A stretch of 64,000 bases of DNA. Source: Kofleriaceae bacterium (lineage in GTDB: Bacteria; Myxococcota_A; Polyangia; Haliangiales; Haliangiaceae). The DNA is taken from NCBI GenBank assembly GCA_036271395.1, contig DATBAS010000193.1:117097-181096 (forward strand). The letters run 5' to 3'. Under the pieces are notes generated by a model, which was not told where the DNA came from, ran no database searches, and saw only the letters and a program-made list of their open reading frames with translations. Shown here in pieces: positions 20,164 through 24,158 of this stretch (position 1 is the stretch's first letter; each line of letters begins with the position of its first letter). The position numbers were made by a program, and so were the translations under genes.

Positions 20164-22263
20164 TTGGTGACATCGGCAACGCCGCCCGGCTACGACGAGC
20201 CGAGCCATCACCTCGCAGACTATGGCGAGCTGTTCGGCCGGCTGGTCGAGCGCATGACGAAGCTCAAAGCGCGCGCCGGCCGGGGCGCGACGGTGATCGC
20301 CGAGACCGATCGCGCGCGGCTCGTCGCGGCCGATCCCGAGCTCGCGGCGCTCGATCGCGAGATCACGACGCGGTCGCAACAGATCACCGCGCGCGCGACC
20401 TACTCGCGCCGGCTCGGCGTCGCGCTGCCGCTCGAGATCCTGCGCGAGCGATTCGCGCTGGCGCCGGCCGATCTCGAGATCCTCGGCGTGCTGTCGACGA
20501 TCGAGCGCGGCACCGCGTTCAACCCGTACACCGGCAGCCACGATCAGCAGATGCACGTCGACGTCGGATTCGTCGTCGCGCTGCTCGCGAACGCCGACAC
20601 GATGCCGCCCGGCGATGTCCGCTTGCGGTTCTCCGCCGACGCGCCCCTCGTCGAGGCCGGGCTCGTCGAAGTTCCGCCGGCCTCGGGCTATGCGATCGAT
20701 CCGCCGTTGGTCCAGAAGCGCGTGCGCCTGGCCGACCGCATCCTCGATTTCATCGAAGGCGCCGAGGCGCCGCCGCCTTCGCTGCTCGGGGCAATCGCGA
20801 CATTCACCGCCGAGCCGATGCCGGCGAGCGAGGTCCTGCTGCCGGAGCCCGCGGTGATCGATCAAGTCTCGCGCGCGCTGTCGCGGCCGGATCAGCTCGT
20901 CGAGCTGATCGGCGCGCCGGGCGTCGGCCGCAAGGCGATCGCGGGCGCTGCCGCGCGCGAGCTCGGCCGGCCGCTGCTCGCCATCGACCTCGCCGAGGTC
21001 CCGGTCGACGCGCGCGCGCTCGACTCCGTGTTGCGCCCGTTGTTCCGCGAGGCGCAGCTGCAAGGCGCCGTGCTCGCGATCGATCGGGCGAACGAGTACG
21101 CCGACGGCGAGAACCAACAATGGATCTACCCGCGGCTCACCGAGCTGCTGCGCCGCCTGCGCGCGCCGCTCGTGATCGTCGGGGAGAAGTCGCCGGCGTG
21201 GCTGTCGCGTGCGGGTCGCGTCGCGATGCACTTCGACGTGCCGTTTCCAACGCCGGAGACGCAGCGCCGGCTCTGGGTGCGGCACTTGCCCGCGGGCCTA
21301 TCACTCGCGCCCGACATCTCGCTCGAAGCGCTGGTCAAGCGCTACTCCGCGACGGGGGCCGCGATCCGCGACGCGTGCGACGAGCTCGGCCGGCTCGACG
21401 CGGTGCTGCAGCGCGGCGGCATCGTGACCGAAGCGCAGATCGTTGCCGTGATCCGCACGCGGCTCGCCCATCGCTTGGCGGCACTCGCCTCGCCGGTGCG
21501 CACCACGCTCGAGTGGGACGACGTGATCCTGCCGGATGAAGTCCTCGCGCCGGTGTTCGAGTTCTTGAACTACGCCGCGCACCGCCAGAAGATCTTCGAC
21601 GACTGGGGCTTCGAGCGAAAGCTGCCGTACGGCCGCGGTCTGTCGGCGCTGTTCGCGGGCCCGCCGGGCACCGGCAAGACGATGATCTGCTCGCTGCTCG
21701 CGAAAGAGCTCGGGCTCGAGCTCTATCGCATCGATCTGTCGCAGGTCGTTAACAAGTACATCGGCGAGACCGAGAAGAACCTCGGCCGCGTGTTCGACGA
21801 AGCCGCGCGCGGCCAGGTCATGTTGCTGTTCGACGAGGCCGACTCGCTGTTCGCCAAGCGCACCGAAGTGAAATCGAGCCACGATCGCTATGCGAACCTC
21901 GAGGTCAACTACTTGCTGCAGCGCATGGAGTCGCACGACGGCGTGGTCGTCATGACGACGAACAGCGAGACCGCGATCGACCCGGCGTTTCGCCGCCGCA
22001 TTCGGTTTCGCATTCGCTTCCCCGCGCCCGACGAGACCCAGCGACTCGCGCTGTGGCAAGGCATGATGCCCGTCGAGGCGCACGTCGCGCCCGATCTCGA
22101 CCTGCGCGTGGTCGCGCAGAAGTTCCCGCTCGCCGGCGGCAACATCATGAACGCGCTCGTGCGCGCGGCGACCGCGGCGCAAGCCGATGGCGGCCCGATC
22201 CAACAGCGACACTTGCTGCGCGCGGCCGAGCTCGAGTACGCCGAGATGGGCTTCCTGGCATGA
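20164..22263 (+). CDS. Two-domain AAA+ ATPase (degenerate D1, canonical classical-clade D2)
   Basis: D2: Walker A GPPGTGKT, Walker B LLFDEAD, second region of homology TNSETAIDPAFRRRIRF. D1: degenerate GAPGVGRKA. TTG/GTG start at 20164/20167. Confidence 0.85.
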   Translation: MVTSATPPGYDEPSHHLADYGELFGRLVERMTKLKARAGRGATVIAETDRARLVAADPELAALDREITTRSQQITARATYSRRLGVALPLEILRERFALAPADLEILGVLSTIERGTAFNPYTGSHDQQMHVDVGFVVALLANADTMPPGDVRLRFSADAPLVEAGLVEVPPASGYAIDPPLVQKRVRLADRILDFIEGAEAPPPSLLGAIATFTAEPMPASEVLLPEPAVIDQVSRALSRPDQLVELIGAPGVGRKAIAGAAARELGRPLLAIDLAEVPVDARALDSVLRPLFREAQLQGAVLAIDRANEYADGENQQWIYPRLTELLRRLRAPLVIVGEKSPAWLSRAGRVAMHFDVPFPTPETQRRLWVRHLPAGLSLAPDISLEALVKRYSATGAAIRDACDELGRLDAVLQRGGIVTEAQIVAVIRTRLAHRLAALASPVRTTLEWDDVILPDEVLAPVFEFLNYAAHRQKIFDDWGFERKLPYGRGLSALFAGPPGTGKTMICSLLAKELGLELYRIDLSQVVNKYIGETEKNLGRVFDEAARGQVMLLFDEADSLFAKRTEVKSSHDRYANLEVNYLLQRMESHDGVVVMTTNSETAIDPAFRRRIRFRIRFPAPDETQRLALWQGMMPVEAHVAPDLDLRVVAQKFPLAGGNIMNALVRAATAAQADGGPIQQRHLLRAAELEYAEMGFLA

Positions 22264-24158
22264 CCAGCCGCGCCGATATTCGCCGCGCGTTAGCGCTCAA
22301 CCCCGACAAGCGCGCGATCGCCGCGCAGCTCGCCGAGCTCGCCGTCGCCGGGCCGCTATCGCCGGGCGAAGTCGGCGAAGCGCTCGTCGGCTACTTGTTC
22401 GATCCGCACGGCAATGCGTTGCTCGCGACTACGGACGCGCGCGCGACATGGCTCGCCGGGCCGTTGTTTCGCGCGGTCGGTCCAGGAAACTTCGCGCCGA
22501 TCGACGACGTCGTCGCGGCCGTGATCGCCGGGCCGCTGCTCGCAGCTGCGAACAGCGAGGCGCTGCTCGCCCGGCGGTTCGCGCCCCGCGCCGACGACGC
22601 CATCGCGTTCGCGATCGCCGCGTTGCCGGAGCCACGGCAAGCCGACGTGCTCGCGCTGCTCGCCTCGGATGGCGGCCCCGAGCCGCAGCTGCTCGCGCAA
22701 TCGACGCTGCAATGCGGAGCCGTGCTCGCGGCCGCGCCGCACCTGCTCGACGCGCCGATCGCGAGCAAGCTCGTCGCCGAGCTGATCGCGCTGCTCGCCC
22801 CGTCGCGGCCCAAGCCGCTGCTCGATCAAGCGGCACGGATCTGTGCCGCGATCGCGGCGCGCGATCACGTGCTCGCCGAGCGGATTCGCTCGGCCGCGTT
22901 CGCGGCGATCGACGCGAGTCATCGCCCGCCGCCGCGCACGTTCGCCGCCGAGATCGCCGCGATCGGGCGCGCCCGCCGCTTGCCCGACGAAGATCGCTTG
23001 CTCGCGTTGCCGCAAACCGAGGTGGCGCAAGCCGCCGCGTACATCTTGGGGGCGTGCGCGCCGCTCGAACGCGTGCCGTTCGCCGCGCATCGCGCGCTGG
23101 TCTTGGAACGGCCCGACGGTGCCGATCTCGCCGACGCGTTCACCGATGGACTCGTCGCCGCCGCGCACGTGCCGGCGCTCGCCGAGCTTGCCGCGAGCTT
23201 GCTCGACGCCGATGCCGATGCGCCGCTCACCGGGCTCGGCCTCGCGAACGCGTTGCCGCTCGATCCGATCGCCGAGCGGCTGATCGCGGAGCTCGAGAAC
23301 GAGCGGCCGTCGCATCGCGCGCTCGCGTGCGGCGCCGTCATGTTGCTCGATCATCCGGCAGTCGAGCCGGCACTCGCCGCGCGACTCGGCGATCCGTCGT
23401 CGGAGATCGCCGCGGCCGCCGCCCGCGCGCTGGTCGAACGCGGCCGTGGCGATCTGATCGCCGACCACGCGAGCCGTGAAGCGCATCCGCTGCGCGGCGC
23501 GATCGCGCGTGCCGCCACCGGCGAGCTCTCGGTCGCGGTGATCGGCGAGCTCGTGACCGGCGCGTCGCGCGAGCTCGGCGACGAGCCCGGCGACGTCACG
23601 CCGATCGTGCGCTTGCTCGGCGATTGCTTGTTCGGCTCGATCGATGGGCTCGACACGTGCGCGAGCTTGATCGGCGGCGTCCCCGACGCGATCGGCCTGG
23701 TCGCGCTGGCCGCGAGCGCCGATCTCGGAGACAACGCCGACATCGGGGTGATCGCGCCGCCCGACGCGCGCGCGCGCCTCGCGAGCATCGTGATGGATCA
23801 GCACGACGCCGAGCTCGTCGCGCTCGGTACGTTCGTGCTCGCGCGGGTCTCCGCCGGCGACGCAGGCGTCGCCGATCTGGCCGCCGATGGGCTCGCCGCG
23901 ACGGCCGGCCACGCCGACAGCTACCTCGCCGCACTCGCTGCGGTGCGAACCGCGACGCCGAAAACCGCCGCCGCGCTCGCCGCGATGATCGGCGGCGATC
24001 AGCCGATCGGCGCGCGTGTGCTCGCCGCCGCCGCGTGCGGTCGAGCGCTGCCGGTCGATCATCCTGCGTGGGCCGACGTCCGCGCCCTGCTCGAGCTCGG
24101 CACGATCGCCCGCGCAGCGGCGTGGACCGCGCTTCGCGACCGCGCCAGAAAGCTTTGA
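22260..24158 (+). CDS. HEAT-like helical repeat protein, translationally coupled to the AAA+ ATPase
   Basis: ATG at 22260 overlaps the ATPase TGA (ATGA). 632 aa, Ala/Leu-rich repeats with LGDPSSEIAAAAARALV-type HEAT units. Confidence 0.65.
   Translation: MTSRADIRRALALNPDKRAIAAQLAELAVAGPLSPGEVGEALVGYLFDPHGNALLATTDARATWLAGPLFRAVGPGNFAPIDDVVAAVIAGPLLAAANSEALLARRFAPRADDAIAFAIAALPEPRQADVLALLASDGGPEPQLLAQSTLQCGAVLAAAPHLLDAPIASKLVAELIALLAPSRPKPLLDQAARICAAIAARDHVLAERIRSAAFAAIDASHRPPPRTFAAEIAAIGRARRLPDEDRLLALPQTEVAQAAAYILGACAPLERVPFAAHRALVLERPDGADLADAFTDGLVAAAHVPALAELAASLLDADADAPLTGLGLANALPLDPIAERLIAELENERPSHRALACGAVMLLDHPAVEPALAARLGDPSSEIAAAAARALVERGRGDLIADHASREAHPLRGAIARAATGELSVAVIGELVTGASRELGDEPGDVTPIVRLLGDCLFGSIDGLDTCASLIGGVPDAIGLVALAASADLGDNADIGVIAPPDARARLASIVMDQHDAELVALGTFVLARVSAGDAGVADLAADGLAATAGHADSYLAALAAVRTATPKTAAALAAMIGGDQPIGARVLAAAACGRALPVDHPAWADVRALLELGTIARAAAWTALRDRARKL

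Follow-up and report, generated by a model that had tools for sequence, protein, structure and literature searches.

Loader ATPases of contractile injection systems

Contractile injection systems (CIS) encode an AAA+ ATPase whose part in cargo loading was shown only recently. Its described representatives are Afp15, Pvc15 and Alg15, built from an N-terminal domain, a degenerate first AAA domain (D1) and a canonical second one (D2) with a DEAD motif. In Pvc15 the N-domain resembles DNA-binding proteins; D1 has Arg for the Walker A Lys, lacks an acidic Walker B and a second region of homology and is described as non-hydrolysing, and D2 carries the DEAD motif (PMC11495950). Cargo loading requires the D2 Walker B of Alg15 or Pvc15 (bioRxiv 10.64898/2026.05.27.728243; PMC11495950). 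The cargo bears a disordered N-terminal leader (bioRxiv 10.64898/2026.05.27.728243). The gene considered here encodes what is by sequence a member of this class, a 699-amino-acid (aa) ATPase of a Kofleriaceae bacterium (contig DATBAS010000193.1, assembly GCA_036271395.1), and lies on a 64-kb stretch of DNA that was analysed as a whole (the window).

In the window, the ATPase gene overlaps the gene of a 632-aa protein and is close to that of a giant protein of 3,340 aa. The favoured reading, held at about an even chance, is that the ATPase is an unfoldase of the Afp15/Pvc15/Alg15 class that became detached from the CIS operon in a mainly Myxococcota clade and serves a dedicated giant client. 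No description of CIS-detached Afp15-like ATPases, or of this module, was found in the literature on DUF4157, Afp15, Pvc15, Cis15 and Alg15. A sequence-only reading of the locus had proposed a chaperone or loader arrangement. That idea is partly supported. Four of its details fell away: that the N-domain is unique, that D1 is peculiar, that there is a second HEAT partner and that the substrate is the giant in its full length.

Family identity of the ATPase

Every sequence criterion tested assigns the window ATPase to the CIS loader ATPase family (Afp15/Pvc15/Alg15). Pfam finds PF22977 ('winged helix domain, variant') at 57.8 bits against a cut-off of 27, and one AAA domain only, PF00004, at aa 496–620. 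Afp15 of plasmid pADAP has near-identical coordinates (PF22977 at aa 24–207, PF00004 at aa 491–615), and the Afp15 class has nearly the same length, 696 aa. A tblastn search of plasmids matched afp15 of Serratia entomophila pADAP (NC_002523.5, 91263–93353), and aa 156–696 of the window protein align with Afp15 at 33.5% identity over 540 residues (E 2e-56), a span that includes D1 and D2. PF22977 is also present in six CIS-linked ATPase relatives; a literature search on this domain returned no papers.

The open reading frames (ORFs) of the ATPase and the 632-aa protein, their stop/start overlap and the motifs quoted by the sequence-only reading are all present as it described them. What it took for a unique N-domain of about 230 aa is PF22977, which Afp15 has too. 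Its view of D1 as non-hydrolysing agrees with published Pvc15 (PMC11495950). The degeneracy is not peculiar to this protein: D1 is degenerate in almost all of 85 aligned relatives, Afp15 included (GMPGSARAH). The degenerate D1 and the PF22977 N-domain are thus ordinary family traits, and the Afp15 class also shares the DEAD-type Walker B, the Arg fingers and an aromatic pore loop in D2. In an alignment of 16 homologues reaching down to 32% identity, the invariant residues are those of D2: the Walker A Lys/Thr, the Walker B Asp/Glu, the sensor-1 Asn (N600), Arg611/612 and the pore-loop Lys-Tyr-x-Gly. The D1 motifs are free to vary across the same alignment.

The gene itself starts with TTG, with GGAG 12–15 nucleotides (nt) upstream. 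The ATG of the 632-aa ORF at 22260 overlaps the ATPase TGA at 22261–22263 (ATGA; read directly in the sequence). Both ORFs are coding-type, with a third-position G+C content (GC3) of 0.87–0.90 in a window of ~70% G+C, and the same two products appear in independent gene calls on public contigs. The closest relatives of the window proteins are labelled Kofleriaceae (Myxococcota, order Haliangiales).

A housekeeping origin would make the ATPase a CDC48/p97-, PAN/ARC- or FtsH-like quality-control enzyme that neighbours the giant gene by chance. D2 alone does match CDC48/p97 in the PDB (E ~1e-39) and the CDC48, PAN and FtsH models of NCBIfam, and the locus is set among housekeeping genes. These matches are confined to aa ~426–690, at 60–108 bits against cut-offs of 500–1,000 (CDC48 90.5 against 802.65, PAN 88 against 500, FtsH 61.6 against 600); across CDC48, PAN, FtsH, EccA and ARC the range is 47–108 bits against 467–1,008, and these families were rejected. 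The N-domain is of the PF22977 type, unlike those of CDC48 and FtsH, the relatives that match over the full length are ATPases of CIS, and linkage to the ~1,400-aa, solenoid and helical-repeat genes described below is kept down to 41–54% ATPase identity. A housekeeping enzyme is thus very improbable. The sequence-only reading would have been refuted by an ATPase that clusters with housekeeping families and is conserved independently of the giant gene; instead, the ATPase groups with Afp15/Pvc15, and the proteasomal, FtsH and CDC48 families match D2 only, far below their cut-offs.

That the module serves in anti-phage defence, with an IetA/IteA-like ATPase at its core, is likewise very improbable. 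IetA/IteA is the best match in both PADLOC and NCBIfam, at 108 bits. That match is to a generic D2, and the cut-off is 510 bits. In PADLOC only the ATPase D2 gives matches (IetA/TRIP13) and the other eight module proteins give none, an IetS-type protease partner is missing, and the position is conserved and core-genome-like, not a variable island. The defence reading was rejected, PADLOC and PHROGs giving generic D2 matches only and none for the partners.

No CIS genes near most loci of a mainly Myxococcota clade

Characterised members of the Afp15/Pvc15/Alg15 family lie inside CIS operons; the window ATPase does not. The afp15 gene has an annotated CIS tape-measure gene on its upstream side and a DUF4255 terminator gene on its downstream side, and neither adjoins the window ATPase. 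A locus search with the single protein gave two close relatives only, and an alignment-based profile search was used instead. Run on a single genome per species, the profile-guided scan gave at least 581 relatives (related loci carry L-numbers here, such as L001 or L083); the best 80 were analysed with 10-kb flanks, their ORFs were clustered and the cluster representatives annotated. CIS genes are common there: a Pvc16_N tail terminator, usually the gene right after the ATPase, in 45 of the 80 loci, sheath and gp19-like tube in 36, DUF6760 in 35, a VgrG-like spike in 31, gp25 in 19 and Baseplate_J in 17. Hidden Markov models (HMMs) built from these six CIS clusters found none of them in the 64-kb window. 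DUF4157 proteins occur in 36 of the 80 loci (iterated profile), often directly 3' of the ATPase, and this frequent linkage is a point of likeness between the window locus and the Afp15 family.

A neighbour-joining tree of the ATPases groups every Myxococcota locus and two unclassified ones in one 24-leaf clade that is separate from Afp15 and contains the window ATPase. A CIS marker is found in 0 of 20 loci of this clade, as against 46 of 56 outside it (counting loci whose flanks total at least 8 kb; reach ~10 kb). A basal subclade that includes L041 has a canonical D1 (GPSGTGKT and FFDECE in L041; L015 and L035 likewise), which, with the CIS genes beside L041, is consistent with descent of the clade from CIS ATPases.

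An ATPase followed by a very large or DUF4157 protein is a recurrent theme in the clade (L004, L006, L031, L041). In L004 (1529–11500), a Myxococcota metagenome-assembled genome (MAG), the ORF immediately after a paralogous ATPase has 3,324 aa or more; it runs off the contig and terminates in a cysteine protease domain of the calpain type (Peptidase_C2, E 6.5e-43). The DUF4157 protein that follows the clade ATPase has at least 1,725 aa in L006 and 748 aa in L031. The clade paralogues in L052 (13142–14476) and L060 (7092–8456) have a radical SAM protein next to them, not a giant or DUF4157 protein. In L172 (10001–16389), a 39%-identical ATPase sits among planctomycete-type genes (PSCyt1/PSD1, DUF1501), convergent with a 999-aa eCIS_core protein and accompanied by several unannotated large genes, with no recognisable CIS gene within 22 kb; the pair may represent a further case of detachment from a CIS, here beyond Myxococcota.

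A conserved gene module

The ATPase belongs to a module of two divergent operons. One encodes a helical-repeat protein (TPRa), the ATPase and the 632-aa solenoid, and the other a second helical-repeat protein (TPRb) and the ~1,400-aa protein that corresponds to the N-terminal part of the giant; proteins of 110 and 608 aa complete it (Table 1). The module is found in L001, L002, L083, L084, L085 and L169, and partially in L170 and L016, with ATPase identities of 88% (L001/L002), 73% (L083), 65% (L084 and L169) and 54% (L085). The six loci have in common a helical-repeat gene of ~360–380 aa directly upstream of the ATPase on the same strand, a 630–675-aa protein overlapping the ATPase stop by 4 nt, and a divergent helical-repeat gene of ~390–420 aa followed by a homologue of the first ~1,400 aa of the giant. 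The paralogue locus L016 (41% identical) has genes like those for TPRb and the N-terminal part of the giant. The remaining members vary in order: the giant N-terminal homologue, a 110-aa-type gene and the 608-aa-type gene in L084 and L169; the ATPase, a small Cys protein, the solenoid and the 608-aa-type gene in L085; and the small Cys protein, ATPase, solenoid and 608-aa-type gene in L170.

The window, L083 and L085 share their chromosomal surroundings, with a formyltransferase on one side and carA, dihydroorotase (pyrC) and hisS on the other. These shared housekeeping surroundings argue for vertical inheritance and against a mobile island, and the module looks core-genome-like in Kofleriaceae. 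Downstream of the solenoid gene lies an MgtC gene (24225–24911), left out of the module because it is not conserved in L084/L085. A sigma-70-like promoter match (24188–24215; TTGACA, 16 nt, CATAGT) just upstream of MgtC was also seen, and a transcription unit separate from the ATPase–solenoid operon is suggested.

Table 1. Positions of the module genes, the neighbouring insertion genes and their notable segments in the window.
Feature	Nucleotides	Residues	Strand	Basis or remark
608-aa protein, hydrophobic C-terminal segment	2051–3877		-	conserved module member
110-aa protein, N-terminal membrane anchor, 8 conserved cysteines	3890–4222		-	conserved module member
283-aa protein, lipobox-like LAAC at start	4222–5073		-	in lineage-specific insertion
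372-aa ORF, convergent	5689–6807			in lineage-specific insertion
318-aa protein	6801–7757		-	ATG overlaps giant stop (ATGA); in lineage-specific insertion
Giant protein, 3,340 aa	7754–17776		-	ORF real; eCIS_core/DUF4157
Giant: lineage-specific C-terminal extension	7754–13576	~1401–3340	-	missing from most orthologues
Giant: Rossmann-like GGTGGTG near C-terminus	8471–8500		-	
Giant: HEVAE motif (second HExxE)	9812–9844		-	
Giant: second hydrophobic cluster		2240–2273		hydropathy
Giant: eCIS_core/DUF4157	13259–13453	1442–1506	-	Pfam, 44.6 bits against cut-off 22
Giant: HEAAH of DUF4157		1495–1499	-	motif reading
Giant: conserved N-terminal ~1,400-aa module	13577–17776		-	66 homologues, hydropathy, AlphaFold2
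Giant: hydrophobic hairpin cluster	16775–16978	267–334	-	hydropathy
TPRb, 389-aa Ala-rich helical-repeat protein	17843–19012		-	first gene of minus-strand operon, divergent
TPRa, 377-aa Ala-rich helical-repeat protein	18951–20084		+	first gene of plus-strand operon
Afp15/Pvc15-type AAA+ ATPase, 699 aa	20164–22263		+	PF22977 + PF00004, afp15 similarity
ATPase: N-terminal winged-helix-like domain PF22977	20308–20772	49–203	+	Pfam
ATPase: D1 P-loop GAPGVGRKA	20911–20937	250–258	+	degenerate
ATPase: D1 Walker-B position LAIDRANE	21073–21096		+	without DE
ATPase: D2 Walker A GPPGTGKT	21658–21681	499–506	+	
ATPase: D2 pore loop NKYIGETEK	21751–21777	530–538	+	KYIG at 531–534
ATPase: D2 Walker B LLFDEAD	21823–21843	554–560	+	
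ATPase: D2 Arg-finger segment AIDPAFRRRIRF	21973–22008	604–615	+	R611/R612
Predicted alpha-solenoid (HEAT/ARM-like), 632 aa	22260–24158		+	AlphaFold2 model, Foldseek, orthologue PF13646

The alpha-solenoid partner

The 632-aa protein had been called HEAT-like, and as a fold class this is borne out by the model. AlphaFold2, run on a 32-sequence alignment, predicts ~40 helices and one small hairpin with a predicted local distance difference test score (pLDDT) of 93 and a predicted template modelling score (pTM) of 0.92. Foldseek against the PDB places the model near karyopherin-beta2, CAND1, Kap123, importin-beta and Rpn1/Rpn2 (E 1e-5 to 1e-3, probability 1.0), with TM-scores of 0.2–0.3 that are usual for flexible solenoids. 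By its own sequence the protein stays below threshold (HEAT_2 at 24.8 bits against a Pfam cut-off of 27.7), and the precomputed annotation of distant orthologues (33–41% identity) is PF13646. The predicted fold points to no specific family, and no sequence homology to Rpn1/Rpn2, karyopherins or CAND1 was detected.

Homologues of the solenoid are confined to the ATPase lineage and range from 89% down to 33% identity, a faster divergence than that of the ATPase. The 4-nt stop/start overlap is kept in L083, L084, L169 and L170. Stoichiometric co-production and an adaptor role of the solenoid, both put forward by the sequence-only reading, may follow from this conserved overlap but were overstated. 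Coupling to a solenoid and a preceding helical-repeat protein sets the window ATPase apart from Afp15, Pvc15 and Alg15, and these two families are not among the recurrent gene clusters of CIS-linked loci, one HEAT-profile match in the Nostoc CIS locus L044 apart. There, an ORF of ~1,100 aa (12375–15662) downstream of the ATPase and terminator matches the solenoid HMM (E 3e-31), which could be either generic HEAT-repeat similarity or a real relative.

The 26S proteasome, with its Rpt ring and Rpn1/Rpn2, and p97/CDC48 with its adaptors offer an analogy. Their ATPases share a D2 of the classical AAA clade and their partners the same fold class, and the solenoid receptors illustrate how such a protein might present clients to an unfoldase. 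Membership is not implied: the N-domain and D1 differ, as does the sequence of the solenoid.

The giant protein and its conserved N-terminal part

The sequence-only reading described the giant as substrate-like, and the CIS cargo marker DUF4157 is indeed present in it. The part that is co-inherited with the ATPase is smaller than had been proposed: in Kofleriaceae, and in Myxococcales related to them, co-inheritance holds for the N-terminal ~1,400 aa and not for the whole 3,340 aa. The 66 homologues of aa 150–1200 are nearly all complete proteins of 1,300–1,600 aa and align to aa 1–~1400 only. A 93%-identical homologue, P0166, has 1,610 aa with a different tail and lacks the extension. DUF4157 occurs in just one other of the 66, P0169; its source label is Caldimonas sp., and it is probably a mis-binned Kofleriaceae contig. 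Giants of similar size are found in L083 (3,389 aa, eCIS_core) and L002. By these alignments, the conserved partner of the ATPase is the N-terminal ~1,400-aa part, and everything from DUF4157 onward is a lineage-specific extension.

The giant begins with a disordered leader rich in Ala, Gly and Pro, and no signal peptide was detected in it. Beyond DUF4157 it gave no Pfam match (five segments, E up to 1) and no PDB match with phmmer. The AlphaFold2 model of aa 150–1200 is all-alpha, with helices of 100–125 residues, at a pLDDT of 64. Foldseek found no significant neighbour of this model; the best E was 0.086, to coiled coils, chemoreceptors and alpha-pore-forming toxins.

Described CIS cargo provides the nearest comparison. 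Like Cgo1 and Cgo2 of AlgoCIS, the giant has a disordered N-terminal leader, a DUF4157 with HExxH and a variable C-terminal region. Like Tme of Streptomyces davawensis, it is very long, with predicted transmembrane (TM) helices, coiled coils and large disordered stretches (PMC11126660). Unlike CIS cargo, it carries DUF4157 after the conserved ~1,400-aa module and not near the N-terminus, most of its orthologues lack the domain, and no CIS operon lies within about ten genes of it in the 64-kb window. Outside DUF4157 its sequence is not similar to that of any DUF4157 protein from the sampled CIS loci, and its length is ~1.5 times that of Tme and almost three times that of Cgo2.

These comparisons bear on an explanation that keeps the ATPase class and the client and changes the destination. 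In it, the ATPase would act in trans, loading the DUF4157-bearing giant, or the ~1,400-aa protein as a tape-measure-like component, into the tube of a CIS encoded elsewhere in the genome; this is possible, if on the doubtful side. The presence of DUF4157 is a strong indication of CIS cargo (Geller 2021, PMC8213781; PMC11297309), loader ATPases act on disordered N-terminal leaders of the kind found here (bioRxiv 10.64898/2026.05.27.728243), and Tme, a TM-containing coiled-coil DUF4157 protein of 2,247 aa, is a genuine Streptomyces CIS effector (PMC11126660). On the other hand, the absence of DUF4157 from most client orthologues speaks against loading in trans, and 3,340 aa is far above the largest cargo shown to be loaded, ~1,100–1,230 aa (PMC11297309).

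Other module genes and the lineage-specific insertion

TPRa precedes the ATPase in all six complete modules; TPRb is conserved in L001, L002, L083–L085, L169 and also L016. Their longest ORFs overlap by ~60 nt at the 5' ends (18951–19012), and the orthologue alignments start 12–25 residues in. The true starts are probably internal, that of TPRa slightly downstream of 18951, and the shared promoter region very short. TPRa matches a TPR protein in a PDB profile search with E 0.04, and hhalign compares TPRa with TPRb at E 8e-4 and probability 25%; the pair may be described as helical-repeat proteins that are TPR-like at best. In L002, TPRa ends 9 nt before the ATPase start.

The 80-nt spacer between TPRa and the ATPase in the window contains an imperfect palindrome (20094–20133; perfect core ACCGACCAAC ca GTTGGTCGGT, with flanking arms that extend the core). 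It resembles an operator or a small hairpin element that was inserted here. The palindrome is missing from L001 and L002, in which only 9 nt separate the two genes. An Rfam scan and a tRNA scan of the window gave no match.

The 110-aa and 608-aa proteins both have homologues next to the module in L084, L085, L169 and L170. The 110-aa protein gave no family match and the 608-aa protein no Pfam match. The 110-aa gene and the 283-aa gene upstream of it share one base, at the start of the former and the stop of the latter.

Compared with L084/L169, ~9 kb is inserted in the window between the ~1,400-aa module and the 110-aa gene. The insertion holds DUF4157 with the C-terminal extension of the giant, the 318-aa gene, the 372-aa ORF and the 283-aa gene. 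The 318-aa protein has no family match and no homologue in L084 or L085; its N-terminus is reminiscent of the 'repeat-companion' motif of planctomycete and myxobacterial proteins. The 283-aa protein has no database match. The 372-aa ORF had been proposed as a second HEAT-like protein. It looks like a real gene (GC3 0.85); its HEAT_EZ match is sub-threshold (E 0.01, 16.8 bits), hhalign gives a probability of 0.3% for a relationship to the 632-aa protein, and its place in the insertion makes it lineage-specific. An exact-sequence look-up of its product returned no record.

This pattern resembles a polymorphic toxin on a conserved carrier. As in polymorphic toxin loci, the N-terminal 1,400 aa of the giant are conserved and the C-terminus differs even in the 93%-identical relative, ~9 kb with the extension and three extra genes are inserted, and the 318-aa gene overlaps the stop of the giant in an immunity-like position, as a downstream immunity gene would. 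Unlike in those loci, no toxin or immunity domain was recognised in the insertion (Pfam, PDB, PADLOC, PHROGs), and the giant is at most a putative toxin.

Proposed mechanism and its weighing

In the detached-unfoldase reading, the ATPase would form a double-ring hexamer in which D1, unable to hydrolyse ATP, holds the ring together. D2, with its Walker A and B motifs, sensor-1 Asn, Arg fingers and KYIG loop, would burn ATP and thread the client. The client would be the ~1,400-aa protein, whose disordered N-terminal leader the ATPase would engage. This aggregation-prone, membrane-active protein would be held or presented by the co-translated solenoid, and probably by TPRa and TPRb too, which would act as receptors or holdases against its aggregation or premature insertion. 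The end point would be delivery to, or insertion into, the envelope and not packing into a tail tube, with the envelope-associated members of the module marking the destination. In the window lineage the client gene has been extended by a 'pre-toxin' domain (DUF4157) and by C-terminal domains of ~1,800 aa, with an immunity-like gene added, and the module would thus serve to deliver a giant that resembles a polymorphic toxin.

The features of the client (a disordered leader, hydrophobic hairpins and long helices) are in line with the detached unfoldase. A bolder version, put forward tentatively, treats the seven-gene module as a hitherto unrecognised, CIS-independent protein-handling or export machine of Haliangiales. 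In it, a loader-type unfoldase of injection-system descent, with the solenoid and the helical-repeat proteins as its adaptors, would move the ~1,400-aa protein into or across the envelope, and lineages such as that of the window would have made this protein the carrier of a giant polymorphic toxin through the addition of DUF4157 and C-terminal domains.

Several points count against a detached unfoldase with dedicated partners. The neighbour-joining tree is midpoint-rooted, with no outgroup and no support values. Any p-value for the clade versus non-clade CIS count is descriptive only, because the loci are phylogenetically related. The clade is not uniformly CIS-free: L041, excluded from the 20-locus count by its short flank, has at 23–6344, in this order, a CIS_tube+LysM gene, a truncated VgrG-like gene, a MOSC-domain ORF, the ATPase and a 524-aa DUF4157 protein, and its contig begins at the CIS_tube side, so that any further CIS genes would lie beyond the contig edge. 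A CIS elsewhere in the Kofleriaceae genome is possible, because a divergent CIS with its own AAA+ protein has been reported in a Haliangiales MAG (bioRxiv 10.1101/2024.12.19.629468) and Kofleriaceae belong to Haliangiales. The ~1,400-aa module is modelled at moderate confidence and has no fold match. On the partner side, the TPR assignment of TPRa and TPRb is weak, with no Pfam or NCBIfam match and a PDB profile E of only 0.03–0.04. HEAT_2 proteins of ~645 aa near the paralogous ATPases of L005 and L016 resemble the solenoid at repeat level only and are not demonstrably its homologues.

The L041 arrangement, which joins a clade member to CIS_tube and VgrG-like genes, and the Haliangiales CIS also favour loading in trans. 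Against it, the characterised ATPases lie inside their CIS operon, and for 88% of the known effectors the gene is no more than ten genes away from it (PMC11297309), set beside the clade loci and the window described above, in which no CIS gene was found. CIS loci reportedly seldom occur in Myxococcota (bioRxiv 10.1101/2024.12.19.629468), and the module is core-genome-like in Kofleriaceae. A second scan, for the Pvc16 terminator, showed no Kofleriaceae in the best 80 of at least 600 matches listed, which is weak evidence on absence. Sorangium, Polyangium, Minicystis and a Myxococcaceae genome are among the matches listed, and the 3-kb flanks of these myxobacterial terminators yielded no ATPase beyond one fragment.

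Implications for the family and for myxobacteria

The Myxococcota clade appears to have lost the injector, kept the ATPase and gained fixed partners, with a client that only sometimes carries DUF4157. The ATPase may thus work on its own, with a HEAT-type partner and a giant membrane/coiled-coil protein. In nature, such a clade would separate 'ATPase plus client' from 'particle assembly' and offer a simpler system for studying how the loader binds and acts. If the module works without a CIS, genome surveys could not rely on an Afp15-like ATPase or on DUF4157 alone to detect an injection system. In that case the module would also represent a new route for giant membrane-active proteins in predatory soil myxobacteria.

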